Source: a virus | Strand: one strand, 5' to 3' | UHGV virus genome: UHGV-0071757 | DNA: 38,572 bases | Shown: in pieces, positions 16,799 through 34,536 of the stretch | Position numbering within the stretch: position 1 is the first letter of the stretch | Layout: the number at the start of each line of letters is the position of its first letter | Notes under the pieces: generated by a model | The model's database searches: none | The model's input: the letters and a program-made list of their open reading frames with translations, nothing else | What the model was told of the DNA's origin: nothing | Made by a program: the position numbers and the translations under genes

Positions 16799-19744
16799 AT
16801 GACAGACATTACAGCCAATGTTGTAGTGAGTATGCCTTCGCAACTCTTCACTATGGCGCGTTCTTTTAAAGCCGTAGCCAATGGCAAAATTTATATCGGT
16901 AAAATTGACACTGACCCGGTAAATCCTGAAAACCAGATTCAGGTTTATGTAGAGAACGAAGACGGTTCTCACATTCCTGTTTCGCAACCAATAATCATTA
17001 ACGCTGCTGGATATCCGGTATATAACGGACAGATTGCCAAATTCGTAACCGTGCAAGGCCATTCTATGGCTGTTTATGATGCGTATGGTACACAGCAGTT
17101 CTATTTTCCGAATGTGCTGAAGTATGATCCTGATCAGTTACGACAGCAATTAGAAGACCCAGATGGAGCGAATAAATACCCAAAACTTCAGATAGCAAGA
17201 TGGAGAGACAGTTATGATGTAAGAGGTTGGGGGGCTATTGGTGATGGTGTTCATGATGATACATCAGCTCTATCAGAATTACTTTCTGTTGCAACAGGTG
17301 GTGAAAAGATAGATGGGCGAGGGCTTACTTTTAAAGTATCAACTCTTCCAGATGTCAGTCGATTTAAAAATGCTCGTTTTTTATTTGAGAGAATACCGGG
17401 TCAGCCTCTTTTTTATGCTTCTGAAGATTTTATCCAAGGAGAGTTATTTAAAATTACAGATACACCGTGGTACAACGCCTGGACGCAGGATAAAACGTTT
17501 GTATATGACAATGTCATCTATGCGCCTTTTATGGCTGGAGACCGCCATGGTGTAAATAACCTCCATGTTGCATGGGTTCGCTCAGGAGATGACGGGAAGA
17601 CCTGGACAACGCCGGAATGGCTTACAGATTTACATGAAAACTATCCCACAGTTAACTATCACTGCATGAGTATGGGGGTTGTCAGAAATCGCCTTTTTGC
17701 TGTAATTGAGACGCGGACCGTGAGCGGAAATAAACTGCAGGTTGCAGAGTTGTGGGATCGCCCAATGAGTCGCAGCCTTCGCGTTTATGGTGGTATAACG
17801 AAAGCAGCAAATCAGCAAGTCGCTTATATTCGCATTACTGATCACGGATTATTTGCTGGTGATTTTGTCAACTTCTCAAACTCTGGTGTTACAGGTGTTA
17901 CCGGGAATATGACGGTGACTACTGTCATTGATAAAAATACTTTTACAGTTACGACGCAAAATACCCAGGATGTGGATCAGAATAACGAGGGTAGATACTG
18001 GAGTTTTGGTACATCATTTCACTCGTCACCATGGAGAAAAACCAGTCTTGGAACTATTCCTTCTTTTGTTGACGGAAGCACTCCTGTTACTGAGATTCAC
18101 AGTTTTGCGACGATTAGCGATAACAGTTTTGCTGTTGGCTACCATAATGGTGATATTGATCCACGCGAGCTTGGGATACTCTATTTCTCTGATGCTTTCG
18201 GTTCTCCTGGTAGCTTTGTTCGCAGACGCATACCTGTAGAATATGAGGCGAATGCATCTGAGCCATGTGTAAAATATTATGATGGCATTCTGTATCTGAC
18301 GACCAGGGGGACATTAAGTACTCAACCCGGTAGTTCATTGCACAGAAGCTCTGATTTAGGTACATCATGGAATTCTCTTCGCTTCCCAAATAATGTTCAT
18401 CACTCAAACCTTCCTTTTGCCAAAGTTGGCGATGAGCTGATTATTTTTGGCAGTGAGCGCGCATTTGGTGAGTGGGAAGGAGGAGAACCTGATAACCGTT
18501 ATGCAGGAAATTATCCAAGAACATTTATGACCAGAGTTAACGTCAATGAGTGGAGTCTGGATAATGTAGAGTGGGTTAATGTTACTGATCAGATTTATCA
18601 GGGCGGAATAGTTAACTCTGCGGTTGGTGTTGGTTCAGTTTGTATCAAAGACAACTGGCTGTACTACATTTTCGGTGGGGAAGACTTTCTAAACCCATGG
18701 AGCATAGGGGATAACAACAGAAAATATCCTTATGTTCACGATGGTCACCCGGCTGATTTGTATTGTTTCAGGGTGAAAATTAAACAGGAAGAATTTGTTT
18801 CAAGGGATTTTGTCTACGGAGCCACTCCTAACAGAACGCTTCCTACTTTTATGTCGACGTCAGGCGTGAGGACGGTTCCTGTACCCGTTGATTTCACAGA
18901 TGATGTTGCCGTCCAGTCACTGACTGTCCATGCCGGTACATCAGGACAAGTTCGCGCGGAAGTCAAACTTGAGGGTAATTACGCCATTATTGCGAAGAAA
19001 GTACCGTCTGATGATGTTACCGCTCAGAGATTAATCGTTAGCGGCGGTGAAACAACGTCTTCAGCAGATGGCGCAATGATAACGTTGCATGGTTCCGGAA
19101 GCAGTACTCCACGTCGCGCGGTATATAACGCACTCGAACATCTTTTTGAGAACGGAGATGTTAAACCTTATCTTGATAATGTAAATGCTCTTGGTGGTCC
19201 GGGAAACAGGTTCTCGACAGTTTATCTTGGCTCCAATCCTGTGGTTACCAGTGACGGAACATTAAAGACAGAGGCGGTCTCTCCTGACGAAGCATTGCTG
19301 GATGCCTGGGGTGACGTCAGGTATATCGCTTATAAATGGCTGAACGCTGTCGCTATAAAGGGGGAAGAAGGGGCGAGGATACATCATGGTGTAATCGCGC
19401 AGCAACTTCGTGATGTTCTTATTTCTCACGGACTCATGGAAGAAGAAAGCACAACATGCCGCTATGCCTTTCTTTGCTATGACGATTATCCCGCAGTATA
19501 TGATGACGTCATTACTGGCCAAAGGGAAATACCGCTGACTGATAATGACGGGAGCATCATTGTTGATGAGGATGATAATCCAGTGATGGTAATGGAAGAC
19601 ATCATTGAGCGCGTTGAAATAACGCCAGCAGGATCTAGATGGGGGGTCAGACCTGATCTCTTATTCTATATCGAGGCGGCATGGCAGCGCAGAGAAATAG
19701 AAAGAATAAAAGCTAGGTTAGACTTAATAGAAGGGAAGCACTAA
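16799..19744 (+). CDS. tailspike: P22-like head-binding domain + sialidase-like (endosialidase) domain + C-terminal intramolecular chaperone domain
   Basis: 981 aa. N-terminus [11 protein letters not shown]...[21 protein letters not shown] like P22 gp9. Two Asp-box motifs ([16 protein letters not shown]). C-terminal ~150 aa resemble autoproteolytic chaperone domains of endosialidases and tail fibres. Confidence 0.85.
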
Positions 19745-19897: not shown

Positions 19898-20639
19898 ATG
19901 TCAAGACTCAAGACTCAAGACTCAAGACTCAAGACTCAAGACTCAAGACTCAAGACTCAAGACTCAAGACTCAAGACTCAAGACTCAAGACTCGTTTTCC
20001 GTTGATGATAATGGGTCAGGTAATATTTTTGTATGTGGAGATCTTGTAAATAGCAAAGAGAATAAAGTTCAGTTCAATGGAAACAATAACAAACTTATTA
20101 TAGAAGATGATGTTGAGTGTCGATGGCTTACCGTAATATTTAGGGGTGATAATAATTACGTAAGAATACATAAAAACAGTAAGATTAAAGGTGATATTGT
20201 CGCAACAAAAGGTTCAAAAGTTATTATCGGTAGAAGAACGACAATAGGTGCAGGTTTTGAAGTCGTCACTGATAAGTGCAATGTTACAATTGGCCATGAC
20301 TGCATGATAGCAAGAGATGTTATTTTGCGTGCATCAGATGGGCATCCTATATTTGATATTCATAGCAAAAAAAGGATTAATTGGGCAAAAGATATCATTA
20401 TATCTAGTTACGTATGGGTAGGGAGAAATGTCTCTATAATGAAAGGGGTATCTGTTGGAAGCGGATCTGTCATTGGGTATGGGAGTATTGTAACTAAAGA
20501 TGTGCCATCTATGTGTGCAGCAGCCGGTAATCCAGCAAAAATAATAAAAAGAAATATAATATGGGCAAGAACGGATAAAGCGGAGCTAATTAGTGATGAC
20601 AAGAGATGCTCCAGCTATCATGCGAAGCTCACGCAATAA
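19898..20639 (+). CDS. neuO: phase-variable polysialic acid O-acetyltransferase NeuO-like; out of frame (OFF) in this sequence
   Basis: ATG 19898 is followed by 13 AAGACTC heptads encoding RLKTQDS repeats. The ATG frame stops at TGA 20003-20005. The hexapeptide-repeat acyltransferase body (frame ending 20639) lies in a different frame from the ATG. Confidence 0.85.
19903..19993 (+). repeat. (AAGACTC)x13 heptanucleotide tandem repeat
   Basis: Counted directly: 91 nt, 13 perfect 7-nt units starting 5 nt after the neuO ATG. Confidence 0.95.
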
Positions 20640-20727: not shown

Positions 20728-21016
20728 ATTAACCGCGGTAATGGATAAATTATTAATGTTTTTAGATTGTGAACGATATCATATTGTGCGGAAGTAGTGA
20801 AGTAACCATGTAAAATGATTGTTTCATAGCCTATGAGACACACAAGGCTTTGTGCTCTTCTGTGGATGTGTGGCTACATGTTTGAAGATCGTTGTGCCGT
20901 ATTTGTGACATACACATGGCAACATCATGCCTCAACTTTCTGTTTGTGCCATCAACTATAGATTAGTGAATGCGGTTAATGCTTGCTAAAACAGATAGTT
21001 ATGATTGGTGCTACAG

Positions 21017-21062
21017 ATTCGTAATGCGAAGGTCGTAGGTTCGACTCCTATTATCGGCACCA
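21017..21062 (+). other. att site: 3' 46 nt of a tRNA-Thr(CGU) (thrW-type) gene, partial, not a functional tRNA
   Basis: attcgtaatgcgaaggtcgtaggttcgactcctattatcggcacca has anticodon loop CGT, T-arm and acceptor 3' strand plus CCA. The 5' acceptor strand needed for a complete tRNA is absent upstream. Confidence 0.8.
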
Positions 21063-21567
21063 TTCTAATGTCTCCCCAAGTCTACTCAAGTATTTAAAAA
21101 CCTCTTATAATCCGCATGTTAGCGCCCCTTTTAGTCTTTTGACGTCTACTTAAGTACCCCAAAATCTACAGTCAATTGGGGGTACTTTTGGGGGTATTTG
21201 CTGTTCGGTTTAGTGGAGGTACCCCCAAGTGAAACTCAATGCCCGTCAAATAGACACTGCCAAGCCAAAAGAGAAGGCTTACAAGCTGGCTGATGGTGGT
21301 GGTCTGTATCTCCTGGTAAAACCTAGTGGAGGAAAATATTGGCGCTTCAAGTATCGTGTAGCTGGTAAAGAGAAGCTGTTAGCACTAGGTGTGTATCCTG
21401 AAGTTACCTTGGCTGATGCTCGTGCAAAACGTGAAGAAGCTAAAAGGGGTATCGCTGGGGGTATCGATCCGATGGAAGCGAAACGAGAGGAAAAGATTGC
21501 CCGGGAAACGCAGTTAAACAACACCTTCAAAGATATTGCCCTTGAGTGGCACAGCAGCAAATTAAAA
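21047..21567 (+). repeat. direct repeat copy A (att core + int promoter + first ~112 codons of int)
   Basis: About 90% identical by eye to 38013-38519. Contains GGGGGTACTTTTGGGGGTAT-type motifs. Confidence 0.85.
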
Positions 21568-22443
21568 AAATGGTCTGCTGGTTATGCTTCAGACATCCTC
21601 GAAGCCTTCAACAAAGATGTGTTCCCTTACATTGGCAAAAAACCAATCGCCGAAATCAAACCACTTGAACTGCTGAATGTGCTGCGGCGCATCGAGGGGC
21701 GCGGTGCTACCGAAAAAGCCAAAAAAGTGAGGCAGCGATGCGGGGAAGTTTTCCGCTATGCAATTGTCACTGGACGTGCTGAGTATAACCCTGCACCGGA
21801 TCTCACCAGCGCGATGCAAGGTCATGAATCTAATCATTATCCTTTCCTCACAGCCAAAGAATTACCTGATTTTTTCAAGGCATTGTCCAGTTACTCAGGA
21901 AGTGCATTGGTTGTTATGGCGGCTCGTCTACTGATTATCACCGGTTTGCGGACTGGCGAACTGCGCGGTGCATTATGGGATGAAATCGATCTCAACAAGG
22001 CTATCTGGGAGATACCTGCTTCACGGATGAAAATGCGTCGCCCTCATGTGGTGCCTTTGTCTAAGCAGGCTCTTTCGCTTATTGGGCAGATTAAAGAATT
22101 AACTGGCAATTATCCGCTTATGTTTCCCGGCCGTAATGATCCAAGGAAAACAATGAGCGAGGCTAGCATAAACCAAGTATTTAAACGCATCGGCTATAAC
22201 GGAAAGGTTACTGGTCATGGATTCCGGCACACCATGAGCACCATTTTGCATGAGCAGGGCTATAACACCGCGTGGATAGAGACACAGCTTGCACACGTCG
22301 ATAAAAACTCAATTCGTGGCACATACAACCATGCGCAATATCTGGATGGTCGCCGGGAGATGCTCCAGTGGTATGCCGACTATATGGATTCGCTCGAGCA
22401 TGGCGGTAACGTGGTGCATGGCAAGTTCGGAAAATGTGGATGA
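21229..22443 (+). CDS. int: P4-family tyrosine integrase
   Basis: 404 aa, GTG start. N-terminal arm-binding-type domain (GGGLYLLVKPSGGKYWRFKYR) and C-terminal catalytic residues (HGFRHT ... RGTYNHAQY). Directly downstream of the tRNA fragment. Confidence 0.9.
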   Translation: MKLNARQIDTAKPKEKAYKLADGGGLYLLVKPSGGKYWRFKYRVAGKEKLLALGVYPEVTLADARAKREEAKRGIAGGIDPMEAKREEKIARETQLNNTFKDIALEWHSSKLKKWSAGYASDILEAFNKDVFPYIGKKPIAEIKPLELLNVLRRIEGRGATEKAKKVRQRCGEVFRYAIVTGRAEYNPAPDLTSAMQGHESNHYPFLTAKELPDFFKALSSYSGSALVVMAARLLIITGLRTGELRGALWDEIDLNKAIWEIPASRMKMRRPHVVPLSKQALSLIGQIKELTGNYPLMFPGRNDPRKTMSEASINQVFKRIGYNGKVTGHGFRHTMSTILHEQGYNTAWIETQLAHVDKNSIRGTYNHAQYLDGRREMLQWYADYMDSLEHGGNVVHGKFGKCG

Positions 22444-22565
22444 CTGGTTGCGTATACAGTAGTAGACTTTGAGCGACGAAAGAAAAGGCTGTGTCTAGGG
22501 TCGCTCCCGAAAATCCGTACACCTCGACGGACTGGTACAGCCACTACAGTAGAGGACGCTGAGGT

Positions 22566-23369
22566 GTGCGTATGATTGATATTCATGCCGAATTAAACGA
22601 ATACAAAAAAGATTTTATTTCTTTACGTGAATTTCTTGAGGTCGTGCTTAAGGTCGCTGGTGATGATTATGATGTTTCAGATGTCATAACTTGGATACTC
22701 AGGAGAATAAGCGGAGAACATATCCGCCTGTACACAGTAAATGAATTTAAGCTGTTGGAATCTTTTTGTAACCCGTATCGGGATGAATTTGATTATGATG
22801 TTCTTTATAGAAATCTGAATGCGGTTCGGAAACGTGGTTGTTTACCTGGTGAGAGGGATGAAAATGGTTTTCTGGTGTCCGGTTATTGGGAAGATCCCGA
22901 ATTTGAGAACATTGGATTTATAAGGGGTGAAATTTTCGCAATTTTTCCCGATGTCCTTGACGCGTTAACGAAGCTGGAAGGCGCTAACTCTTCTGAAAAT
23001 GACGAGGCACAAGGACGCGATATTGAAAAGAAAGAGTTGCGTACAGAGGATGATTTATTATCCCAAATCGCAATGCTGGAAAAAGAAAACGCAGAGTTAA
23101 GGGCAAGGATAGAGCAGTTAGAGCAAGAGCGCCCGATACACTTATATAAATACTGGGATAAAGACCCATTAGCTAAGGCTATTGAGATTAGAAACAGAGA
23201 GTGGGCCAATTACGATCCAGAAAATGATTTTGCCACCAGGGGAAATCAAGAAGCGATAACCAGGGAGCTTAAGCAGTGGGGGGCAAGTAATGCACTTGCA
23301 ACGCTCATAGAGAGGACTGCCTGCCCTATTAACCGAGACAACAGCCAAAAGAACGCAAAGCCGGATTAA
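22566..23369 (+). CDS. hypothetical protein with coiled-coil segment
   Basis: 267-aa ORF (ATG at 22572 is better placed after GAGGTG). Coiled-coil LLSQIAMLEKENAELRARIEQLEQE. No recognisable catalytic motif. Confidence 0.55.
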   Translation: MRMIDIHAELNEYKKDFISLREFLEVVLKVAGDDYDVSDVITWILRRISGEHIRLYTVNEFKLLESFCNPYRDEFDYDVLYRNLNAVRKRGCLPGERDENGFLVSGYWEDPEFENIGFIRGEIFAIFPDVLDALTKLEGANSSENDEAQGRDIEKKELRTEDDLLSQIAMLEKENAELRARIEQLEQERPIHLYKYWDKDPLAKAIEIRNREWANYDPENDFATRGNQEAITRELKQWGASNALATLIERTACPINRDNSQKNAKPD

Positions 23370-23383
23370 CGCACCATACCGCA

Positions 23384-23530
23384 TACCCTGAGGGTGATTT
23401 ACTGTTACCCTGAGGGTATTTTTTTATCTTCCCCGTCAATTTTACCATCACCCTTAGGGTAGATTTCCTCCCGATTACCATCACCCTTAGGGTTAATTTC
23501 CTTCCGGTAACCATTAGGCCTGAGGGTATG
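23384..23530. repeat. five copies of ACCCT(G/T)AGGGT-type motif upstream of alpA
   Basis: Copies at about 23384, 23406, 23450, 23483 and 23517 in the intergenic region. Likely protein-binding sites. Confidence 0.6.
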
Positions 23531-23596
23531 AAAATATTCGTTATTTCTGTGCCAGGATTACCTCGTCAAATTGAGTAGACGTTATGAGGTAAATAT

Positions 23597-23794
23597 ATGT
23601 CAAATACGCTTATTCGTTTAACAGAAGTTCAGCGTAGAACTGGATATAGCAAGGCATGGATTTATCGCCTTATGGGGCAAGGTAAATTTCCTGCATCAGT
23701 TAAAATTGGCTCGCGAGCTATTGCTTTCGTTGAGAGTGAAATTGACGAGTGGATTAATCAGCGTATTGCGGAATCACGCGGAACAGCTACCTGA
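23597..23794 (+). CDS. alpA: AlpA-family transcriptional regulator (excisionase-like HTH)
   Basis: 65 aa. LTEVQRRTGYSKAWIYRLMGQGKFPASVKIGSRAIAFVESEIDEWI is the AlpA/Vis-type signature. SD GAGGT upstream. Confidence 0.8.
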   Translation: MSNTLIRLTEVQRRTGYSKAWIYRLMGQGKFPASVKIGSRAIAFVESEIDEWINQRIAESRGTAT

Positions 23795-23871
23795 TTAAAT
23801 GGCTACGGGGCTATTGCCCCCAGCTATCCACCAGCAAATAAAAGTAACTTAATTCGATAGCAGGAGTTTTT

Positions 23872-24672
23872 ATGAAATTTCCAAAAACGCCCGTACAGGG
23901 GCGGGGCTTCGTTCGGCCTGAAAACCAGAATCTGCAAAATTTCGGCGAAATTATCCCGATTATTTCCGGCGTTATTGGCGGGAGTGAAACCACTATTGTT
24001 AGCGCCAGAGCGTTACATAAGGCGTTAGGTGTAGGGCGCGTTTTCCGTTCGTGGATCAAGGGGCGCATTGAAGAATACGGGTTCACGGAAGGCGTGGATT
24101 ATGAGGTTGTTGAATATTTGAGCCGACCCGATCCGGTGAGCGCAAAATCTCGCCAGCAAACCGCTCTTGAGTACATCATCACAGTGAACATGGCGAAAGA
24201 ACTGGCGATGGTCGAACGTACCGAACAGGGCCGCGCCGTTCGCCAGTACTTTATCAAATGCGAGGAGGAGCTACACAAGGTAGCGCCAGTGCGTTCCGCA
24301 GCGTTACGCCGGGAACTGAAAGCCCGTATCTCCGTTGCCAGCTACTTTAAGCCGATGTGTGCCGCGCTGGAGGCGTACCGGGCTGAACTGGGTAAAAACA
24401 CACTCCAGCACCACTACACCACGGAAGCCAATATGCTGGCGCGTATCGTGCTGGGTGGCATGACTGCAAAACAGTGGACGCAGGCGAACGGCATCACAGG
24501 CGAACCACGCGACCACATGAGCACGTTGCAGCTTGAGCACCTTTCTTACCTTGAGCAGAGCAATATCACGCTGATTGAGTTAGGCCTGGACTACCACCAG
24601 CGGAAAGCTGAATTAATTCGTCTTTCGCAGCGTTGGTTAGCCCGTCGCATGGAGGAAAACAGCCATGTGTAA
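23872..24672 (+). CDS. AntA-like antirepressor-domain protein
   Basis: 266 aa. Motif ARALHKALGVGRVFRSWIKGRIEEYGFTEGVDYEV resembles the AntA/AntB N-terminal domain as I recall it. Confidence 0.55.
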   Translation: MKFPKTPVQGRGFVRPENQNLQNFGEIIPIISGVIGGSETTIVSARALHKALGVGRVFRSWIKGRIEEYGFTEGVDYEVVEYLSRPDPVSAKSRQQTALEYIITVNMAKELAMVERTEQGRAVRQYFIKCEEELHKVAPVRSAALRRELKARISVASYFKPMCAALEAYRAELGKNTLQHHYTTEANMLARIVLGGMTAKQWTQANGITGEPRDHMSTLQLEHLSYLEQSNITLIELGLDYHQRKAELIRLSQRWLARRMEENSHV

Positions 24673-25344
24673 CGCTCTGACCGTTACAAAAAGAGAAAGC
24701 GCCCCGTTGCCGGAGCGCCTTTGTGAACGAATAGCCTACTGCGCCATATTGCTTACTGTCTACGAGGCAGATTATAGCGTTGTGGTCGCACAGAGTGAAG
24801 GCGCTGATCACCGTTACTACAGCACGCCAGAAATGCAGAATATTTTGCTGCAAAATGTCGTTGGTCACGCTGTCCGGAAAGCAAAAAATTTTGCTGGTGG
24901 CGCGACTGATGCGATTTTGTCAGGTCGCAAGGTGATGATCAATCTGATGTCTAATTTCGTTCTGGATAAAACAAAGGCGACCGCAGAGGGCCACCAGTGG
25001 GAAAGCTACACACTTGAACACATCGCCAACAATGCCAGATTTGCGGCTGGTGGGCAATGTGATCAGTGTGTTGGCTTGCTGGTGGGCTATTCCTGCTCTT
25101 TAACATTGCCATGCCGCGATGTTTTCCAGGTATGCGACCCCATTTTTGTGCGCCTGTACTCTTTAAGGAATTTCTCAAGGATAAACGCACAGGGCGCGAA
25201 TCTGTCTGACTCATATTCGTACGTTATCTTTCTGCGCTGTCTTTTCCGTGCCGGTGATGGTGTATTGGTCGATTCTTTGTTGGTCATTCTGTGTACCTGT
25301 AAAGCAATGCGCCGGAGTTCCTCACACCACGGCGATGATAGTTA

Positions 25345-25650
25345 TTATTCTGATTCTTTGGCCTTGCGGCGCTGGAGTTCTTCACGTGCGACGGTGACGA
25401 GCTGCCCGATCTCCTCGACAGCTTTGACTCCGATTTTTTCCACCTGCGCCAGTGCATTGAGCGAAGAAACCAGGGGATTTTCTCCGCTTCCTTCTGCCTG
25501 GCGGCGGGCGATCTCACCACGCATGGCGGTTACTATGAATCCGGCGTTGCTTTCGCCGTCCAGTTTTACGGATTCCATGCCTTCAAAAGCATCATGTGGG
25601 ATACGAATTGAAATCTGTTTTGATTTGTCGTTGATAGTGTTTTTTGCCAT
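25345..25650 (-). CDS. putative ribbon-helix-helix transcriptional repressor
   Basis: Start taken at the ATG with SD TAGGAGA 7 nt upstream (MAKNTINDKSKQISIRIPHDAFEGMESVKL...). Beta-strand/helix pattern typical of RHH, helical C-terminus. Divergent from the downstream operon. Confidence 0.6.
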   Translation of the reverse strand: MAKNTINDKSKQISIRIPHDAFEGMESVKLDGESNAGFIVTAMRGEIARRQAEGSGENPLVSSLNALAQVEKIGVKAVEEIGQLVTVAREELQRRKAKESE

Positions 25651-25672
25651 GTGCATTCTCCTAAACAAAAGA

Positions 25673-25748
25673 TGTGATTCAGTATACACAAAAAAGAATC
25701 ACAAAAAATACTTGACCTGTGATTCAGTTAAATTTAATTTAAATCACA
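25673..25748. promoter_or_regulatory. two palindromic operators (TGTGATTCAG-N-GAATCACA) in a divergent promoter region
   Basis: O1 25673-25702 and O2 25719-25748, with a TTGACC -35-like hexamer between them. Located between the RHH gene and the 25838 operon. Confidence 0.55.
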
Positions 25749-25837
25749 CCTCAGTAAGAGGATATAAACGACAACGCCCCGAACTGTTTGCGGCAGTAGC
25801 GGGGCGTCTAACCAAACCGTTAAATGAGGTAACGATT

Positions 25838-26203
25838 ATGGCTGGGGCACAGCATACCCAAACTCACCCTAAATTTATATACACCTTCTTGGCGGTGCAC
25901 CGTGATTGCATGGCTGACGGTAAAAACACTGTTCATGTAGCCGCCGATACGCTGGTTGATGCCTGCGAGATGCTCAATGACATGGGCTATATCTCGGCAA
26001 CATGGAAAGGGCGCGAAGAAAACACGTTGTTTATTCAGAAATGCGAAAACAATTTTATCTGGCGTTTTATCGCCCTGAGTACGGCACAACCGCGCGTGAT
26101 TCACATCGAGGCCACCAGCGAACAGGAAGCACGCCAGCAATCTCCTGATGGCTGCGTGATGGTATTCGCTGCCCGTATTCGCCAGGAGGTGGAGCATGTG
26201 TAA
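25838..26203 (+). CDS. hypothetical protein (first gene of replication/regulatory operon)
   Basis: ATG 25838 with GAGG SD 8 nt upstream, 121 aa. It is the in-frame 3' part of the 512-aa ORF in the track. Confidence 0.55.
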   Translation: MAGAQHTQTHPKFIYTFLAVHRDCMADGKNTVHVAADTLVDACEMLNDMGYISATWKGREENTLFIQKCENNFIWRFIALSTAQPRVIHIEATSEQEARQQSPDGCVMVFAARIRQEVEHV

Positions 26204-26420
26204 TGCAACATGGCCTGATGCAGCGGTAGACGCTATCAAAACGCTGATGGATTCACTTATTGAGATTTCTGCTATCGCTGGTGTGGCGCATAAACACGCA
26301 GCCAGAGAATCAGAATGCATCTCCCATTATTTAGCATTTGTGCAGCTGAAAGCCGATCAGGCACTGGATAAGGCCGGAAAAATTATCATGGCTGATGTAC
26401 AGGAGGTGCACCATGCATAA
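26196..26420 (+). CDS. hypothetical small protein
   Basis: 74 aa. Start overlaps the upstream stop (ATGTGTAA). Confidence 0.45.
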   Translation: MCNATWPDAAVDAIKTLMDSLIEISAIAGVAHKHAARESECISHYLAFVQLKADQALDKAGKIIMADVQEVHHA

Positions 26421-26778
26421 CCTGTCAATTTCTGACCTTAACAGCATTCAGTTTGACGAGATATTTTCCGGGCAGCTACTGGTCAACGTGGAGAATGGAC
26501 GCGTGGTAAGTAATTATCACCTGCCGGATGGTGCAATTGCCGGAAGCGTTGAAGCATTGCTGGAACTGGCGGAACGTGCGCGACTGATTAAGCCGTCAAC
26601 GTGCCATCACGATGATGATCTGCATTTTACCGGGTGTATGGTGAGTCACTACGAAAACGGCGTTGAAGTATCCTGCGAACGTCTGCGTGATGATTGCTGT
26701 TTCGGCACACTGCCGGAATTTATCGAATTGCTGACCAGTTGCGGTTATCAGGTCATTCAGGGGGGTAAACATGCGTGA
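26413..26778 (+). CDS. hypothetical protein
   Basis: ATG 26413 with AGGAGG 7 nt upstream. Overlaps the previous stop (ATGCATAA). Confidence 0.55.
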   Translation: MHNLSISDLNSIQFDEIFSGQLLVNVENGRVVSNYHLPDGAIAGSVEALLELAERARLIKPSTCHHDDDLHFTGCMVSHYENGVEVSCERLRDDCCFGTLPEFIELLTSCGYQVIQGGKHA

Positions 26779-27004
26779 TGATCGTTTTAATTCCCTGAAA
26801 CAGGAGTTTGATGGCGCACCGGAAGATACATCGGGCGCATTGTTGAGCATTGCTGACATGATGAAAGCTGCATATTTTCTTATCAATACCATTGGCTACA
26901 AGTCAGAGGGTGAAATGATTCTTAGTATTGCGTCGGACTATGCTGAATATGTGGCAGAGACGCGTTACAGAAGAAAATCTCTGGAGGATGTAAGCCATGC
27001 ATAA
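26771..27004 (+). CDS. hypothetical small protein
   Basis: 77 aa. Start overlaps the upstream stop, suggesting translational coupling. Confidence 0.5.
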   Translation: MRDDRFNSLKQEFDGAPEDTSGALLSIADMMKAAYFLINTIGYKSEGEMILSIASDYAEYVAETRYRRKSLEDVSHA

Positions 27005-27197
27005 TCATGAAGCGCATGTACCCGTAGTGCTTAATGTGCCAGATGATTTCACCGGACGCGTGCTGGTTTACCTTGATAAAGAAAAAGTGAAATCACAATG
27101 CCGACTGAAAAGTAATGAGATTGTGGGTTCTCCTGAATTTTTTTCTGAACTCTGTATTCGTGCAGAAATAAAACCGGAACTGCTGACAGGAAAATAA
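26997..27197 (+). CDS. hypothetical small protein
   Basis: 66 aa. Start overlaps the upstream stop (ATGCATAA). Confidence 0.45.
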   Translation: MHNHEAHVPVVLNVPDDFTGRVLVYLDKEKVKSQCRLKSNEIVGSPEFFSELCIRAEIKPELLTGK

Positions 27198-27201
27198 AAC
27201 C

Positions 27202-27492
27202 ATGAAAAGGAAAAATTCTGGCTTTACTGCCAGCGGTCTCTCTCGGCCTGAAATCAGACACGGAGATATTTACCGCGACACCAGACGTGGGGGACGAGTG
27301 GTTATTCGTCACGTTACGCCAGGCAATATCACCTACCGCCGTGAGGCTTACGAATATGACTGCGTAATGCCGCGCCGTCAGTTTGAGCGTGATTTTATTC
27401 TGGTGGAAAACAAACAACAGGCAGTGGCGAGACGTGCAGCCACGAATATTAAAAAAATCCGGGCAATGTTGGTTGCGGGAGGTAAGAAGTGA
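27202..27492 (+). CDS. small basic protein, possibly DUF4222-like
   Basis: 96 aa. RGGRVVIRHVTPGNITYRREAYEYDCVMPRRQFERDFILV resembles small proteins found upstream of primases in P4-like islands (recall, low confidence). Confidence 0.5.
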   Translation: MKRKNSGFTASGLSRPEIRHGDIYRDTRRGGRVVIRHVTPGNITYRREAYEYDCVMPRRQFERDFILVENKQQAVARRAATNIKKIRAMLVAGGKK

Positions 27493-29294
27493 AAAACGCA
27501 CCGAATTTAAAATATCAGCCGAAGGATAAATTCACCGAGGTAATCATTTTTGCCGGGACGGATGCTTACGCCCATGCTCAACACTGGATTGAAAGCGAAG
27601 GACGAAAACACGGCGATAACGTGCCTCCTGTTTACCTGGGGCCAAAGCAACTGGCAGACCTGGCGAATATCCGCATTGTCGACGATGAACGCCGCTTTGC
27701 GCGTGTCTATCTCGCGGGGGAGATAGAGCCAATCCAGATCAATGCTATTGCTGAAAAGCTGGCGCTGGCTGGTGTACAGGACGCGAAATTATACAAAGGT
27801 ATCACCGACCGGGAGCCGGAAAACTGGCGCGACTACCTGCAACGGATCCGCGAACAGGCAGAGAGTGGGGAAGTTTCAGCGATGAAATTAGCCACAAAAA
27901 ATATTGACCTATCCAGGCCAGCACTAAATCAGATGGGAGCCAGCCAGAGAGGGGAAGTGTTACTTGAATATTATGGAAGAGCACTGGCTATAAATGATGA
28001 TTCTGATGTAGTTCACCATTACAACGGAATTGTCTGGGTGCCTGTATCTGATAAGGAACTCCAGCGGTCTATGGCGAAGATTTTTATTGATGCTGGAATC
28101 AGTTATTCGCAAAACGCCATTAAATTTGCCGTAGACACAATGAAATTGAGCCTGCCTGTTATGGGCGGGGCAGACAGGAATCTTATTGGATTCAGTAACG
28201 GGGTATTTGATACCCGGACGGGAAATTTTCGGGAGCATAACAAAAATGACTGGTTGTTAAATGCCAGTGAATTACCGTTCAGCCCACCAGCAGAGGGGGA
28301 AACGCTGGCAACACATGCGCCGAATTTCTGGAAGTGGCTGCGTCGTTCGGTGGCAGATAATGATCGTAAAGCTGATCGCGTACTGGCGGCATTATTCATG
28401 GTGCTGGCGAACCGGTACGACTGGCAGTTATTCCTTGAGGTAACAGGCCCAGGCGGAAGCGGTAAAAGTGTGATGGCTGAGATTTGTACCATGCTGGCGG
28501 GTAAGGCCAACACAGTATCGGCAAGCATGAAGGCTCTGGAAGACGCAAGGGAACGCGCGTTAGTAGTTGGCTTTTCGCTGATTATCATGCCGGATATGAC
28601 TCGCTACGCTGGCGATGGTGCAGGAATTAAGGCAATTACTGGCGGCGACAAGGTGGCAATTGATCCGAAACATAAAGCCCCCTACTCCACACGTATTCCG
28701 GCAGTAGTGCTTGCGGTAAACAATAACGCCATGTCATTCAGTGACCGAAGCGGGGGGATCTCGCGTCGTAGGGTGATATTTAATTTCTCTGAGGTCGTAC
28801 CGGAGAACGAACGCGATCCCATGCTGGCGGAAAAGATAGAAGGCGAACTGGCGGTAGTGATTCGCCATTTGCTAACACGATTTACCGACCAGGACGAAGC
28901 TAAAAGACTACTTTATGAGCAGCAAAAATCAGAAGAAGCGCTGTTGATAAAGCGCGAAGGTGATTCACTGGTGGACTTTTGCGGCTATCTGATGTCGTTG
29001 GTTAAATGTGAAGGAATGATGGTGGGCAATGCGGAAATAGTGCCATTTAGCCCGAGGCGATACCTGTATCATGCTTATTTAGCCTATATGTCAGCGCATG
29101 GCCTGGGAAAACCAGTATCACTGACACGCTTTGGTACTGATATGCCAGGAGCTATGGCGGAATACGGAAAGGAGTATAAGCGGGCTAAATGCACTAAAGG
29201 CCCGGATAAAGGGCGAGTGATAACAAATGTTCTGTTAGATGATGATGCTGATGGCTGGTTGCCAGCAGCTACAGGGATTAACGACAGAACATAA
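27489..29294 (+). CDS. primase/helicase-like replication protein (D5-N/P4-alpha C-terminal type, P-loop NTPase)
   Basis: 601 aa. Walker A TGPGGSGKS preceded by a region resembling D5_N/primase C-terminal domains. Followed immediately by the iteron array. Confidence 0.75.
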   Translation: MKNAPNLKYQPKDKFTEVIIFAGTDAYAHAQHWIESEGRKHGDNVPPVYLGPKQLADLANIRIVDDERRFARVYLAGEIEPIQINAIAEKLALAGVQDAKLYKGITDREPENWRDYLQRIREQAESGEVSAMKLATKNIDLSRPALNQMGASQRGEVLLEYYGRALAINDDSDVVHHYNGIVWVPVSDKELQRSMAKIFIDAGISYSQNAIKFAVDTMKLSLPVMGGADRNLIGFSNGVFDTRTGNFREHNKNDWLLNASELPFSPPAEGETLATHAPNFWKWLRRSVADNDRKADRVLAALFMVLANRYDWQLFLEVTGPGGSGKSVMAEICTMLAGKANTVSASMKALEDARERALVVGFSLIIMPDMTRYAGDGAGIKAITGGDKVAIDPKHKAPYSTRIPAVVLAVNNNAMSFSDRSGGISRRRVIFNFSEVVPENERDPMLAEKIEGELAVVIRHLLTRFTDQDEAKRLLYEQQKSEEALLIKREGDSLVDFCGYLMSLVKCEGMMVGNAEIVPFSPRRYLYHAYLAYMSAHGLGKPVSLTRFGTDMPGAMAEYGKEYKRAKCTKGPDKGRVITNVLLDDDADGWLPAATGINDRT

Positions 29295-29319
29295 TACGAA
29301 ATTTATAAGCTGAAACGTA

Positions 29320-29660
29320 AAGGTAGACGGTTGGTAGACAGATTCACTTAACCCTCTACCAACCATCTACCAATTAATATTTTGAATTATAAAGATATTT
29401 TCAATGTGGTAGAGAGGTAGACAGTTATTTCTATATTCCTAAACCACGGGGGGTATATAAAAAACAGATAGTTAAGGGGGCATTTTTTAAATTTCTCTTT
29501 TAACTGTCTACACTGTCTACCATTTAGTAAAAATCATTAATTATCAATGTATTAATGCGGTAGACCGTTGGTAGACAGTTTGCAGATTGTTTTTTTGTTA
29601 TGTGTTAATAACATTAAATAAATCAATCAATTATATCGGTAGACAGTTGGTAGACAGTTG
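29320..29660. repeat. putative island replication origin: ~12 GGTAGAC(N)G iterons in both orientations with AT-rich spacers
   Basis: Copies at about 29322, 29333, 29354(rc), 29364(rc), 29408, 29416, 29505(rc), 29514(rc), 29558, 29568, 29637 and 29648. AT-rich stretches lie between clusters. Confidence 0.6.
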
Positions 29661-29665
29661 TAACG

Positions 29666-30208
29666 ATGGGGCAAAGCATGACTAAGCTGACCATTAACAG
29701 AAAACCAAAAGGTATTTACGGCACGCCGCAGAAAACGACGCAGGCGGCACAGGAGCAGGATAAAACCACATCGGCGCATAAAGTGATGCCCGGTAACCAG
29801 AAAGCGCAGCAGAAGCCTACAGGGGCGACACCGTGGCGGCATATGACCAAACGCCAGCGCAAAAACCGCAGGCGCGTTAACCGCCTCACTGAGTTGTGGC
29901 CTGACTTATTCAGCCGGGAAGCACTGAAGCCGCTTAAGGTGGGGATATTCGACGACCTGATGCAGGATCTCGCCGTCAGGGGGCTGGCATTCGGGCCAGG
30001 GGCATTGCGTGCGACGCTGGCATCTTATGCGCAGTGTCCGCGCTATTACCGCGCCTTAATGGCTGGTGGGGTACGCTACGACCTGAAAGGCCAGCCGTGC
30101 GGCGAGGTGACACCACAGGAACAACAGGACGCAGAAACGCGGCTGGTGGCGCTGAATGAGAAGCGCAAACGCCAGCGCCGGGCAGCAAAGGAGACAATAG
30201 GCGCATGA
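29666..30208 (+). CDS. ProQ/FinO-family RNA-binding protein
   Basis: 180 aa. LTELWPDLFSREALKPLKVGIFDDLMQDL...RYDLKGQPCGEV matches the FinO/ProQ N-terminal domain pattern. Basic N- and C-terminal tails. Confidence 0.7.
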   Translation: MGQSMTKLTINRKPKGIYGTPQKTTQAAQEQDKTTSAHKVMPGNQKAQQKPTGATPWRHMTKRQRKNRRRVNRLTELWPDLFSREALKPLKVGIFDDLMQDLAVRGLAFGPGALRATLASYAQCPRYYRALMAGGVRYDLKGQPCGEVTPQEQQDAETRLVALNEKRKRQRRAAKETIGA

Positions 30209-30492
30209 TTCACGACAGCAAAGCGGAAGCACTGGAAGCGCGTGGTCTGTACCGGAGAGCGGCGGCGCGGTGGGCTGAGGTCATCATGCTGGCGAATGAT
30301 GACAAGGCACGGGAACAGGCGGCAAAACGTCGCGCGGAATGTATCCACAAGGCAGCACGCCCACCAGCAAGGCAGGATAATTTCGGGGAGATGCGCGAAA
30401 CCATCAGCCGGGCACATGCCGGGATGGGATTACATCAGCCCAATGGTGAGGCATTCAGGAAATACCAAAAAAAGAACAATTGTAGTCAGTAA
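30205..30492 (+). CDS. PerC-family transcriptional regulator
   Basis: 95 aa. SKAEALEARGLYRRAAARWAEVIMLANDDKAREQAAKRRAECI resembles PerC-type activators. Overlaps the upstream stop. Confidence 0.65.
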   Translation: MIHDSKAEALEARGLYRRAAARWAEVIMLANDDKAREQAAKRRAECIHKAARPPARQDNFGEMRETISRAHAGMGLHQPNGEAFRKYQKKNNCSQ

Positions 30493-30626
30493 CAGAGGAT
30501 GGGATTCTCTTGGTTTTTTGTTGATGCTTTCTGAGGAAATCTACTACGTTGCTGAGCAGATGAATATTCAATTGCATCTGGGTTCCTGATAAGATTAATC
30601 TGAATATTTTCATTTGGAATAGGGAT

Positions 30627-31769
30627 ATGAATAAAACTTTAATTGCAACATTAGTCGGTATAGTAATGTTAACCGGATGTGGGCCAGAAGAGTTAACTCC
30701 AGAACAGAAACAGGAAGTAGCTGCTCTTAAAGCTGAACTGTCGCAAACGGAAGGTGAAATATCAGCAGCTAAGGAAGTTGACCAGCAGTTTTCTGGTGGG
30801 TTGATAAAAAATCTGACAACAGCAAGACTGGAAATATTAGGAACTAATAAAGCGCTTTTGGAACAGCGTATTAATGCTATTGAATCAGGTGCCAAAATTG
30901 ATGTTGTTGTATCTGGAGTAAAACCTGATCCTGAGCTTGCGGCTTCAATTAAAACTGAAATTGACAGCTTAGATGCAAAAATCAACGAAGCCAAAGCTGA
31001 TGCTCGTCAGTATAGTGGTGGTCTGATAAAGGTACTAAAATTATCTACTGTTGCCACTGAAGAGCAGACCATGGCAATGTTGCAGCAAAAGTACCTCACA
31101 GCCAAGTATGGCCTCGCTGAAGTTAAGCTGGCATCAGTACAAGCTAATGACGCAAAAAACAGTACTGAAACGGAAGTAACAGCCAAAAATTCCCAAGAGC
31201 AACTTCCTTTACTCCCGCCAGCGGATGGTCCGTTTGGCTTAGAAGCCGGTCTTACACAGAAAAACATCGAAGATATGATCGGTGCTAAGCTCAAGCCACT
31301 ACCAGACAGTGTGAATCTGTATACTTCTGATAAATTACCGAAGCAAAACGCAGATTTTGAAATGTATGGTTTGCTGATCTCCCCGAAAGCTGGTTTATGT
31401 CAAATACGGGCTTTAGGAAAAAATATTGATACTGATAGCTATGGATTGGCTCTTAAATCCAAGTTTGAAGAATTGAGTAATTCTTTAAGTTCTCTGTATG
31501 GAAAGGCTGATACTACAGACTTTTTGCTGGCTGGTTCAATTTGGAAAGATCCTCAGGACTGGATGAGGGGGCTAAACAAAAAAGAACGCTTCTTATCTGC
31601 TACATGGAAGGGAACAAAAGAAATACCATTAAAAAACAATATTGATACTATATCTATTGAGGCCAGAGCGAACAATTCCACTCAGGGATATGTCTATCTG
31701 CAGTACTCATTTACAAATGACGAAATTTGTCAGGCAGAAATTGAAGGGGCGAAAAAAAGTTCCCTTTAA
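30627..31769 (+). CDS. lipoprotein with internal repeat, unknown function
   Basis: 380 aa. Signal peptide plus lipobox VMLTGCG. Duplicated (Q/R)Q(F/Y)SGGLIK segments. Strong terminator downstream. Confidence 0.7.
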   Translation: MNKTLIATLVGIVMLTGCGPEELTPEQKQEVAALKAELSQTEGEISAAKEVDQQFSGGLIKNLTTARLEILGTNKALLEQRINAIESGAKIDVVVSGVKPDPELAASIKTEIDSLDAKINEAKADARQYSGGLIKVLKLSTVATEEQTMAMLQQKYLTAKYGLAEVKLASVQANDAKNSTETEVTAKNSQEQLPLLPPADGPFGLEAGLTQKNIEDMIGAKLKPLPDSVNLYTSDKLPKQNADFEMYGLLISPKAGLCQIRALGKNIDTDSYGLALKSKFEELSNSLSSLYGKADTTDFLLAGSIWKDPQDWMRGLNKKERFLSATWKGTKEIPLKNNIDTISIEARANNSTQGYVYLQYSFTNDEICQAEIEGAKKSSL

Positions 31770-31780
31770 ACAATCCGTGC

Positions 31781-31806
31781 AAAGCCCCTTAGTAAGGGGC
31801 TTTTAT
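31781..31806 (+). terminator. rho-independent terminator
   Basis: agcccctt/aaggggct stem followed by TTTT. Confidence 0.7.
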
Positions 31807-31833
31807 ATATTAATGTTCAACGTGGGGGATTAG

Positions 31834-32157
31834 ATGAAAGATAATCTAGCAAAACTAATTGAAAATACTTTAAAAGATATTCTATTAGCTAATGCTGCTC
31901 TAACATTCATTTTTGCAATACCAATGGCTATTATCAGTAGGCATGGGATGGGCATCACAATCTGGTTTATAACTGTGCTCATTGCACCTGCTCTGTGTGC
32001 AGTAGGTGCATGGCTTGTATCTCGAACATCCGGCCATGCTGAGGAGTTCTTTCATCGTCGGTGGGCTAAGCGAATTTATGTTTTTTATACTCTTGCGGCT
32101 GCCGAGTTTTTGCTTGTGTACTCAATCGCGCAAATAATGAAAAATCTGATGAAATAA
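31834..32157 (+). CDS. small inner-membrane protein
   Basis: 107 aa with 2-3 predicted TM segments (LLANAALTFIFAIPMAII, ITIWFITVLIAPALCAVGAWLV). SD GGGGGA upstream. Confidence 0.55.
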   Translation: MKDNLAKLIENTLKDILLANAALTFIFAIPMAIISRHGMGITIWFITVLIAPALCAVGAWLVSRTSGHAEEFFHRRWAKRIYVFYTLAAAEFLLVYSIAQIMKNLMK

Positions 32158-32445
32158 TTAACAAGTTATTATCATGGAGCTTGTGGCTGTTAACCTGCAG
32201 TGAGGCGACAATCGTGTATTTATAAAAACTTCCCCTTTTCACTCCCCGCAGCTTCTTCTGCTATTGCCTTTATGTTTGCATGCACCAACATCTGCCATAC
32301 CTTTGCAGAAAAATCAGAGCATTCAGTGCCGAAGGTTGGTTTATTGATGCTTTTCGTTTCATTTATTGCAATTGTCTCTGGTATCATTTCAATTTGTGCA
32401 ATAATTGCAATAATTGCAATTATTGTCATTCAGAAGGGATCATCA

Positions 32446-32612
32446 TGAAAAATCACGGAGTAAAGCCAGTTTTACTTTCCCGGAGGCAGATCGAAGCCCT
32501 GCAACGCATCCAGGACGAAGAGCGTCAGAAATCTGTGCTTGGTGTGGCACCGTCGATTCATGTTATCGCTCGGCAACTGATGGATAAGGCACTTAAAGAG
32601 GTGAGACTGTGA
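32446..32612 (+). CDS. hypothetical small protein (possible DNA-binding/antitoxin-like)
   Basis: Taken from the internal ATG 32446 of the 32280-32612 ORF, with AAGGG upstream, giving 55 aa. Basic helical segment SRRQIEALQRIQDEERQ. Confidence 0.4.
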
Positions 32613-32881
32613 AATTAAATATCAGAGTGGATAAACGCCAGCTATGGCAGAAAAAAGAGAACAGCGAGGCATTCAGGGCGTTGCTGGTGGAAAATCTTCA
32701 GCATCGGTTCAGTGGAGAGTTGCCTGATGCTCTAGGGAAGAAACTGGAATCCCTGACGGTGGAAATTGGCGATTATGGCTTTGTTGATGTTGAAAGCACG
32801 ACTGCCAACACAGAAATCGTAAAACAGGTCGTCAATGATGTAATGAAAACCACGCTTAGCCAGCCATCCTGGCGCAACTGA
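32609..32881 (+). CDS. hypothetical protein
   Basis: 90 aa, GTG start overlapping the upstream stop (GTGA). Followed by a hairpin. Confidence 0.5.
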   Translation: MKLNIRVDKRQLWQKKENSEAFRALLVENLQHRFSGELPDALGKKLESLTVEIGDYGFVDVESTTANTEIVKQVVNDVMKTTLSQPSWRN

Positions 32882-32886
32882 ATCAG

Positions 32887-32912
32887 TAAGGGGCGGTTAT
32901 TGCCCCTTTCCT
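32887..32912 (+). terminator. putative terminator hairpin
   Basis: aaggggc/gcccctt stem. The U-tract is weak (tttcc). Confidence 0.45.
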
Positions 32913-32962
32913 CCATACCCACAACGCATTCCCTTTCCGCATGAAATTATTTTTTATCGTAT

Positions 32963-33508: not shown

Positions 33509-33510
33509 CA

Positions 33511-33810
33511 TCAAAAAGTGTCAAGTTGAGCAGCTTGCCAGCTTGCCAGCTTGCCAGCTTGCCAGCTTGCCAGCTTGCCAGCTTGCCAGGTTGACACTTT
33601 ACACTCTGAACGCGAAAAAGTGTCAACCTCGCTGTAAGCCCCGCAATTACTGGGTTTGTGCCAGATTTACCACGTCAAAAAGCCGAAAAAACCGCGAAAA
33701 ATGTCAAGTTGCCATGCTTAGAAATGCTAAGGTTTTTCGCGAAAAAGTGTCAAGTGTGTCAACCTGCGATATTAAGATTTATTAAGGTCTTAAGCCGGAA
33801 AGTGTCAACC
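33511..33810. promoter_or_regulatory. array of dispersed (A)AAGTGTCAA(G/C) motifs (about 7 copies, one inverted)
   Basis: Motif copies near 33517, 33590(rc), 33619, 33700 (variant ATGTCAAG), 33746, 33755 and 33801, several with a CGCGAAAAA prefix. Confidence 0.6.
33531..33586. repeat. (CAGCTTGC)x7 octanucleotide tandem repeat
   Basis: Counted directly: 7 perfect 8-nt units (56 nt), flanked by inverted half-sites AGTGTCAA (33516-33523) and TTGACACT (33591-33598). Confidence 0.95.
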
Positions 33811-33929
33811 AGCCCCCTAAGATTTCCTAAGGTGTGATTGGACGTGCTGTACCCTTCTTGTCGCAATGTGGATGAATGACTATAGTGCTGGTAGCTTTGA
33901 CAGCAGAATCAGATTACTGAAGGAAATGT

Positions 33930-34514: not shown

Positions 34515-34536
34515 TCCATTGTATTGAACTTATTAA

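Follow-up and report, generated by a model that had tools for sequence, protein, structure and literature searches.

A probable phage-inducible chromosomal island of mosaic composition between a P22-like prophage and a vat-island remnant at thrW of Escherichia coli

Results

Composition and boundaries of the island

Here, we analysed UHGV virus genome UHGV-0071757, a stretch of 38,572 nucleotides (the window), the DNA of which is that of Escherichia coli. A preliminary description of its letters had pointed to a satellite of the phage-inducible chromosomal island (PICI) or P4 type at 21229-29660, directly beside a prophage that might be its helper. At this place we found a 16,968-bp island in the 3' end of thrW, a tRNA-Thr gene, with a P22-like prophage on its left and the integrase remnant of a vat island on its right (Table 1). 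The island carries an integrase gene and alpA at its left end, a divergent regulatory region, a replication operon that leads to an iteron origin, and a distal half with cargo genes and a conserved module of small proteins and repeated sites.

We set the boundaries of the island from its att direct repeats, from an empty site in strain E1 and from strain 537-20, in which the island stands alone. The window holds no complete tRNA gene; it does hold a 46-bp copy of the thrW 3' end, which is the attR of the prophage, and the last 17 bp of this copy, TCCTATTATCGGCACCA, form the attL core of the island. The same repeat recurs at the far end as TCCTATTATCG-CACCA, with one G missing. For the PICI EcCIMP1, the 10-bp core TCCTATTATC has been published as its att core (PMC11773190), and the distance from core to core, 16,968 bp, is the length of the island. 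The excision junction predicted from these cores (21056-38023 deleted) aligns to strain E1 over 1305 bp with 98.6% identity and a single 1-bp gap; E1, which has the prophage and no island, thus has the sequence of an exact empty site. In 537-20 the island lies by itself beside an intact thrW, at 99.5% identity, and homology to the window stops at 38026. The element is twice as long as in the preliminary description, which let it end at 29660, and it is, as expected of a PICI, a discrete island of ~10-20 kb at a specific att site with direct repeats. That prophage and island share the same att core, as was also proposed, is only approximately right: the prophage attR is the 46-bp thrW copy, and the island core is its last 10-17 bp. 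The region is common, since 88 complete genomes match positions 21000-30000, where the identity to 537-20 is 99.5%, over at least 80% of their length.

Table 1. Features of the window (positions in the 38,572-nt stretch; aa, amino acids)
Feature	Position	Strand	Remarks
Right half of CUS-3/HK620-like P22-like prophage	1-21016	+	Lysis end, TerS-TerL, portal to ejection proteins, tailspike, neuO with AAGACTC repeat
Endosialidase-type tailspike	16799-19744		Prophage gene
46-bp copy of thrW (tRNA-Thr) 3' end	21017-21062	+	Prophage attR; identical to 537-20 thrW from 21017 on; genome matches start at 21017
Island attL core TCCTATTATCGGCACCA	21046-21062	+	Last 17 bp of the 46-bp thrW copy
P4-family tyrosine integrase, 404 aa	21229-22443	+	Full length; Pfam Arm-DNA-bind_3, Phage_int_M, Phage_integrase; phrog_1
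int-alpA RNA motif	22488-22555	+	Rfam RF02996; 45.5 bits against gathering score 35.8, E 2e-6, full-length model match
Coiled-coil protein, 267 aa, function unknown	22566-23369	+	Between int and alpA; no family above threshold; 99% conserved in 537-20
33-bp tandem repeat, 2.2 copies	23442-23514	+	~80 bp upstream of alpA
AlpA	23597-23794	+	PF05930, E 2.4e-19; position of Gram-negative PICI master activator
AntA/AntB-type antirepressor, 266 aa	23872-24672	+	Intact; PF08346; phrog_5817
Leftward unit with YlcI/YnfO-family gene (25345-25689)	24696-25689	-	NF041551; phrog_6522
Icd-like small protein	25985-26203	+	First gene of rightward replication operon; phrog_6196
Five small overlapping genes: 74, 127, 77 and 66 aa and DUF4222 protein of 96 aa	26196-27492	+	phrogs 5146, 340, 24341, 285; PF13973
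Replication initiator/SF3 helicase ('pri-rep' type), 601 aa	27489-29294	+	D5_N, DUF5906, Pox_D5
Iteron replication origin, GGTAGAC(A/C)GTT repeats	29322-29660		Two sets around AT-rich DNA; directly after stop codon of replication gene
ProQ/FinO-family protein (180 aa) and PerC-family regulator (95 aa)	29666-30492	+	PF04352, PF06069
Predicted lipoprotein (380 aa) and membrane protein (107 aa), function unknown	30627-32157	+	Signal/lipobox-like N-terminus (LTGC) seen by eye
Conserved trio: 56-aa protein, 90-aa protein, 175-181-aa winged-helix protein ('h181')	32442-33508	+	
Array of 7 (A)AAGTGTCAA(C/G) sites	33509-33813		Both orientations; directly after h181
Variable-number tandem repeat (CAGCTTGC)7-8	33531-33593		Enclosed by site array, between inverted AAAGTGTCAAG sites
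Membrane protein, 194 aa, function unknown	33930-34514	+	No family matches
GapS1-family antiphage protein (PD-(D/E)xK), 532 aa	35641-37239	+	Intact; NCBIfam NF047931
Island attR core TCCTATTATCG-CACCA	38014-38029	+	Recurrence of 17-bp attL repeat, one G missing
Truncated integrase, 112 aa	38184-38522	+	vat-island remnant; precedes MarR-vat in strains E1 and MP1

Integration and regulation genes

At its left end the island has the order integrase, then alpA, that is characteristic of PICIs, recognized by Pfam matches and by the int-alpA RNA motif. Both proteins had been named in the preliminary description and both are supported by their domains, the P4-family integrase being full length with three integrase Pfam domains. 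The integrase is 96% identical to that of EcCIMP1 and 49% identical to the segment at the integrase gene coordinates of the P22-like phage Kapi1; AlpA is 81% identical to its EcCIMP1 counterpart, which is needed for excision and transfer of that island (PMC11773190). The tandem repeat upstream of alpA is a candidate operator or activator site.

The antirepressor gene antA/B, 58% identical to the EcCIMP1 homologue at the protein level, is intact in the window and frameshifted in the 537-20 island (L001 22856-23585). The leftward unit that follows ends, according to a terminator scan, in a strong terminator-like hairpin (24721-24696), and its DNA is 82-91% identical to that of the PICI EcCICFT073. 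Over 24688-26190, from antA/B to the Icd-like gene, the DNA identity to EcCICFT073 amounts to 82-93%, whereas the flanking proteins reach only 35-52%. We speculate that this conserved stretch could be a regulatory switch or the result of a recent module exchange. A scan of the conserved 24.6-26.3 kb for regulatory RNA returned no Rfam match at E ≤ 1. A 512-aa open reading frame (ORF) at 24665-26203, which overlaps the leftward YlcI/YnfO unit, was rejected as an artefact of the ORF caller; homologues exist only for its last ~70 codons, those of the Icd-like gene.

Replication operon and origin

The C-terminal ~50 aa of the Icd-like protein align to the CFT073 Icd-like protein, and the DNA is 93% identical. 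The five small overlapping genes behind it are 35-53% identical to EcCICFT073 genes and keep their order. The replication protein itself contains the Walker A motif GPGGSGKS and is 44% identical to the EcCICFT073 pri-rep protein over 596 aa. The preliminary description had called it a primase/helicase-like P-loop protein. Of this, the helicase part stands, given the D5/superfamily 3 (SF3) helicase domains and the Walker A motif, while the primase label does not: the first 164 residues have no Pfam match, no Zn-ribbon, TOPRIM or Prim-Pol domain was detected, and TIGR01613, the model of the P4 primase C-terminal part, scores below its cut-off. Judged by its domains, a more fitting name for the product is SF3-helicase replication initiator of the 'pri-rep' type known from EcCICFT073.

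The adjacent iteron origin of the preliminary description was borne out. The window has nine exact GGTAGAC heptamers, and eight of them cluster 3' of the replication gene, within 29322-29655, with 11-bp spacing, in both orientations and on the flanks of AT-rich DNA; 2.1 heptamers are expected in the 38.6-kb window, and 0 of 100 shuffles reach nine. Indeed, two iteron sets around an AT-rich region have been described for origins of Gram-negative PICIs (PMC6092414, Fig. 2 legend). The island thus has the PICI arrangement of a pri-rep gene directly followed by a two-set iteron origin, here with no primase catalytic domain detected. At full length, the replication module occurs in 102 complete E. 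coli genomes and also in Escherichia ruysiae, a spread that fits a horizontally spreading element.

Cargo of the distal half

The PerC-family regulator shares 52% identity with its EcCICFT073 counterpart and 48% with that of EcCIMP1. For the 380-aa predicted lipoprotein and the 107-aa membrane protein, scans of Pfam, PHROGs, PADLOC and NCBIfam gave no family match; a homologue of the latter, 43% identical, is present in a Rouxiella island. We also noticed ORFs of 380 and 107 aa, in this order, in an Enterobacter island, a likeness in length and order only.

The GapS1 protein scores 440.7 bits against a curated cut-off of 320 and matches the model over 455 of 455 positions, which places it in the family. 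A candidate PD-(D/E)xK motif, VDFVI...YIDSK, could be picked out by eye when the translation was read. The GC content of this cargo region is 0.31-0.37. In 537-20 (L001 34496-36090) the GapS1 gene lies in pieces, one of them annotated as 'orthopoxvirus A36R protein', while it is intact in the window. GAPS1 (Mahata et al., bioRxiv 10.1101/2023.03.28.534373) is a PD-(D/E)xK protein that is triggered by a phage capsid protein, with dormancy as the result. The published system is known on a GMT island; the family member predicted here from a full-length match is carried on a PICI. PADLOC found no defence match among the 10 island proteins scanned; GapS1 is newer than the PADLOC library used and was found through NCBIfam.

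Among the island ORFs judged plausible, none has a match to a capsid, tail, terminase or lysis family in PHROGs, Pfam or NCBIfam. This agrees with the preliminary description, which had noted the absence of capsid, tail and lysis genes, and with the lack of phage structural and lysis genes by which PICIs are recognized. The features of a capsid-forming PICI (cf-PICI), i.e. an own capsid, portal, protease and terminase, were not found either, so the island does not belong to that class. Likewise, Pfam and PHROGs scans of the island ORFs revealed no relaxase or oriT-associated gene.

A conserved winged-helix protein and an adjacent site array

The protein that we refer to as h181 has a fold that resembles only the generic winged helix-turn-helix of the TerS-N/Rpp/Xis class. 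Homologues with 36-96% identity were found in E. ruysiae, Klebsiella, Enterobacter, Pantoea, Rouxiella, Serratia, Raoultella, Buttiauxella, Erwinia, Lelliottia and Pseudocitrobacter; where their flanks are visible, they lie downstream of a primase/helicase of one of three types, with int and AlpA further upstream. All five exact AGTGTCAAS sites of the window fall within the array at 33509-33813, compared with 0.5 expected. In the 500 bp downstream of 17 h181 homologues, AGTGTCAA is the top enriched 8-mer, with 35 hits at 12 of the 17 loci and a 148-fold enrichment over the rest of the same 17 loci. The 11-mer AAAGTGTCAAS is clustered beside the h181 gene in every locus that has it, and it was not found in Kapi1, in CUS-3-like loci, in EcCIMP1 or in EcCICFT073. 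Based on this clustering, the array is probably the binding array of h181. Seven to eight copies of the repeat CAGCTTGC are present in the window, compared with two in the 99.5%-identical island of 537-20; as the repeat sits between inverted AAAGTGTCAAG sites, its copy number alters the spacing of the putative h181 sites.

Together, h181 and the AAAGTGTCAAC array are kept in int/AlpA/primase islands of about ten enterobacterial genera (loci L008-L027), independent of the replicase type, and this module is absent from EcCICFT073, EcCIMP1 and Kapi1. Two of the islands with h181 homologues, in Klebsiella pneumoniae (L008 7441-16567) and Pantoea stewartii (L011 7170-9982), have tail/baseplate-type Pfam matches beside the homologue (Baseplate_J, weak; Phage_Wedge1; Gp10_C; Dit_like; and a GDSL-lipase protein) and no capsid genes. 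These islands may be satellites that bring along tail-tip or receptor-binding parts of their own.

Neighbouring prophage and vat-island remnant

The prophage on the left has a complete morphogenesis set from TerS to tailspike (TerS, TerL, portal, scaffold, coat, gp4, gp10, needle, gp14, three ejection proteins and tailspike). The complete P22-like morphogenesis module that the preliminary description had placed upstream is therefore there, but of the prophage itself the window contains only the right half. In E1, a near-identical prophage is present in full at thrW, from int to tailspike, with its integrase directly beside thrW, a gene that is used by P22-type integrases (PMC2629481). The TerL of the window is 100% identical to the segment at the TerL coordinates of Kapi1 over 453 residues (2047-3896 against L005 18704-20544), and gp10 is 99% identical to the segment at the Kapi1 gp10 coordinates. 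TerS matches Kapi1 in its last 31 aa only, the portal is 56% identical and the coat shows no match at E 1e-3. The alignments suggest an abrupt mosaic junction at the C-terminal end of TerS, presumably the part of TerS that contacts TerL.

The neuO-type O-acetyltransferase gene of the prophage (19898-20639) starts with 13 AAGACTC copies. As its ATG at 19898 and the enzyme body, open in the 19899 frame as far as 20639, are in different frames, the gene is phase-OFF. In VTB96933v, a neuO-type gene is annotated at full length. The same VTB96933v (L004 22305-34121) has a CUS-3-like prophage in tandem at thrW with a P4-like satellite that bears psu, ogr/delta, a TOPRIM/DUF927 protein and a retron St85 as cargo.

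A direct repeat of ~430 bp flanks the island (21057-21487 and 38024-38442, 90% and then 99% identical) and is composed of the DNA next to att together with the initial 112 codons of the integrase gene. Its distal copy shows 99% identity to the island int over 300 nt, compared with 91-92% at the amino-acid level for the corresponding remnants of MP1 and E1, which suggests gene conversion between the distal integrase remnant and the island int. Taken together, the order at this locus is thrW, P22-like prophage, island and vat-island remnant, i.e. a stack of three elements.

Discussion

Read from the sequence, the region is likely to be a 16,968-bp PICI of the Gram-negative type, inserted at the thrW 3' end, with a CUS-3-like P22-like prophage on one side and the integrase remnant of a vat island on the other. 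The window contains an intact integrase gene, both att cores matched by an exact empty site, AlpA, a replication gene beside an iteron origin and an intact GapS1 gene. Indeed, the label PICI of the preliminary description is upheld by these sequence features and by homology to two experimentally validated islands, and by its sequence the element is a mosaic of known PICI parts: the thrW-specific integrase, the att core and AlpA are of the EcCIMP1 type, and PerC, the iteron origin, the operon of Icd-like gene, DUF4222 and pri-rep and the divergent regulatory region are of the EcCICFT073 type.

With EcCICFT073 (Fillol-Salom et al. 2018, PMC6092414; 2019, PMC6739421) the island shares a collinear backbone of int, alpA, leftward YlcI/YnfO gene, Icd-like gene, small genes, DUF4222, pri-rep, iteron origin and PerC. 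Its identities to EcCICFT073 are highest in the regulatory DNA (82-93%), followed by DUF4222 and PerC (52% each) and pri-rep (44%). The integrase differs (25% identity), the site of EcCICFT073 being located between roxA and phoQ. EcCICFT073 carries capsid and head-decoration homologues, RppA and a lambda-type cosN, none of which is present in the island, and uses the cos helpers lambda and phi80; in turn, the island has AntA/B, ProQ, the h181 module and GapS1 as extras.

EcCIMP1 (Pick et al. 2025, PMC11773190) occupies the same thrW site upstream of a truncated-integrase/vat island with the same TCCTATTATC core, and we found no other report of a PICI at thrW in the literature. Neither EcCIMP1 nor the island has a recognisable terminase or capsid gene. 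However, the island is not EcCIMP1 itself: the integrase and att module is common to both, while the replication and post-primase modules differ. The 19,963-bp EcCIMP1 has a TOPRIM/DUF927 primase, a second Xis-like alpA_1 and P22-like ejection-protein/DUF2824 genes that are also present in Kapi1; a known defence system is lacking. The 16,968-bp island has instead a D5-type initiator, the h181 module and GapS1, and no counterpart of the EcCIMP1 primase, ejection-like genes or alpA_1.

From these relatives, a life cycle can be proposed. A helper phage that enters lytic growth would turn on alpA, and AlpA would activate itself and the rightward operon. The integrase would then excise the island at the TCCTATTATC cores, and the SF3-helicase initiator would fire the GGTAGAC iteron origin to yield concatemers, which the terminase of the helper would package into helper capsids. 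In a headful P22-like helper, we roughly estimate that about 2.5 island copies would fit per head. The distal half would provide cargo (PerC, ProQ/FinO, the lipoprotein, GapS1) together with the uncharacterised conserved module, and GapS1, as an abortive-infection gene, would guard the host and the island against other phages.

Several points weigh against this interpretation. The whole mechanism is drawn by homology from EcCICFT073 and EcCIMP1. A search of the island for a packaging or interference module, one of the features by which PICIs are recognized, found no TerS, Rpp, Ppi, Cpm, capsid homologue, lambda cosN or P2 cos. In the published scoring scheme, elements like this island fall in a low-confidence class that may include defective ones (PMC11773190). 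The island, with 17 kb, is somewhat larger than EcCICFT073. The alpA promoter region does not align to that of EcCIMP1, only the coding sequence of alpA does, and therefore the same inducing signal cannot be assumed. Finally, the ~430-bp direct repeat could be a substrate for RecA-mediated loss of the island, in which case it could be lost without the integrase.

Could the element be a satellite of the P4 type that depends on a P2-like helper, as the preliminary description also considered? The P4-family integrase at a tRNA gene, the AlpA-type helix-turn-helix protein, the Icd-like gene, a D5-type helicase akin to the P4 alpha C-terminus (sub-threshold for TIGR01613) and the distal defence cargo are indeed features that the island has in common with P4-like satellites such as the thrW element of VTB96933v. 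Yet psu, sid and ogr/delta had no match in any island ORF, although all were detected in the VTB96933v element, which served as positive control; a search of the island with a P2/P4 cos sequence gave no match; and the replication protein has neither the TOPRIM domain of the alpha-type primase nor a Zn-ribbon. Moreover, the VTB96933v element, with its psu, ogr/delta and TOPRIM/DUF927 protein, has nothing in common with the island beyond an integrase of 72% identity and a weakly matching AlpA. On these comparisons the P4-like reading is close to refuted, and we leave it hardly any probability. A more serious alternative, which we still consider unlikely, is that the island is no working satellite, either a decaying PICI remnant that is kept for its cargo (GapS1, PerC) or an integrative element that moves otherwise, e.g. 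by conjugative mobilisation. The missing packaging or interference module would fit such a remnant, as would the decay seen in relatives (in 537-20, antA/B is frameshifted, GapS1 broken and the Icd-like gene partial) and the fact that most island carriers are without the helper type found next door; ProQ/FinO, in addition, is a plasmid-style feature. In the window, however, the backbone genes are all intact, neither att core is missing and E1 provides the exact empty site; moreover, E. ruysiae has the same island, as have diverse E. coli lineages at thrW. Mobilisation by conjugation finds no relaxase or oriT-associated gene among the island ORFs to rely on, and EcCIMP1, validated as a PICI and equally without an obvious packaging module, proved mobilisable. 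The reading as a PICI thus remains the one we prefer.

Is the neighbouring prophage the helper of this PICI? The preliminary description proposed that the CUS-3-like prophage is its specific helper, that the two are co-induced and that their tandem arrangement is meaningful. Precedent speaks for this idea, as EcCIMP1, with its closely related integrase and AlpA, depended on the P22-like phage Kapi1 for its excision, induction and transduction (PMC11773190). The neighbour belongs to the Kapi1 phage group, with its TerL and gp10 nearly or fully identical to Kapi1 segments, and its near relative in E1 is complete from int to tailspike. Both elements, however, insert in thrW, which is enough to explain why they lie side by side. 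The same prophage type adjoins a P4-like satellite in VTB96933v and the vat island in E1. P4-like satellites depend on P2-type helpers. In MP1, the att sequence of Kapi1, AATGGTGTCCCCTGCAG, differs from the thrW core of EcCIMP1, so that the proven pair of helper and PICI is presumably not adjacent there. Co-occurrence is about what chance predicts: among 5426 complete genomes, the TerL type was present in 647 and the replication module (any match) in 1394, with a union of 1858, and 183 genomes had both compared with 166 expected, these being megablast any-match totals for this TerL type only, with phylogeny ignored. Only 6 of the 60 best island carriers have a second matching place of any kind. 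Furthermore, the packaging proteins diverge from those of Kapi1 in TerS, portal and coat, the island is without the ejection-protein-like genes that EcCIMP1 has in common with Kapi1, and the alpA promoter region, which in EcCIMP1 responds to Kapi1, is not conserved. Between the island and the visible prophage half we detected no common DNA of at least 17 nt (short-word blastn; best match 16 nt, E 0.07, outside terS) and no common protein (tblastn); a shared cos/pac-like site, which the preliminary description had also raised, thus comes down to chance-level matches in that half. We therefore regard it as rather doubtful, if by no means implausible, that this particular prophage is the specific helper. 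By analogy with EcCIMP1, a P22-like phage as helper is plausible, but nothing in the sequence ties the island to the prophage beside it.

How PICIs that exploit P22-like phages are packaged is still unknown (PMC11773190). If any part of the island supplies the packaging or hijack function that is otherwise missing, h181 and the AAAGTGTCAAC array are the foremost candidate, a predicted DNA-binding protein and a multi-site array at the border between backbone and variable cargo. We speculate, with a low expectation of being right, that the block of the 56-aa protein, the 90-aa protein, h181 and the AAAGTGTCAAC sites is a previously undescribed DNA-recognition module through which this PICI lineage might possess a packaging-initiation site of its own, by recruitment of the helper terminase. 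Such a role might be functionally analogous to that of Rpp and cosB, in this case for helpers of, e.g., the headful P22-like kind. The module also fits a region of transcriptional control, or a further site that acts in cis in replication or partition. It is the part of the island most worth further work, because packaging in P22-exploiting PICIs is unexplained, and the GapS1 cargo is worth following up as well.

In summary, we found at thrW an island that, as an instance of a PICI, is ordinary, as the family already has close and experimentally characterised relatives. Its place is a hotspot of the kind seen in extraintestinal pathogenic E. coli (ExPEC), beside a K1-capsule-modifying prophage and a vat toxin island, and three mobile elements can evidently stack at one tRNA gene. 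The junction of an EcCIMP1-type integrase with an EcCICFT073-type core indicates that the integration, replication and cargo modules of PICIs recombine freely. PICIs move virulence regulators and antiphage systems among enterobacteria, and this one has an intact GapS1 and a PerC-family regulator on board.

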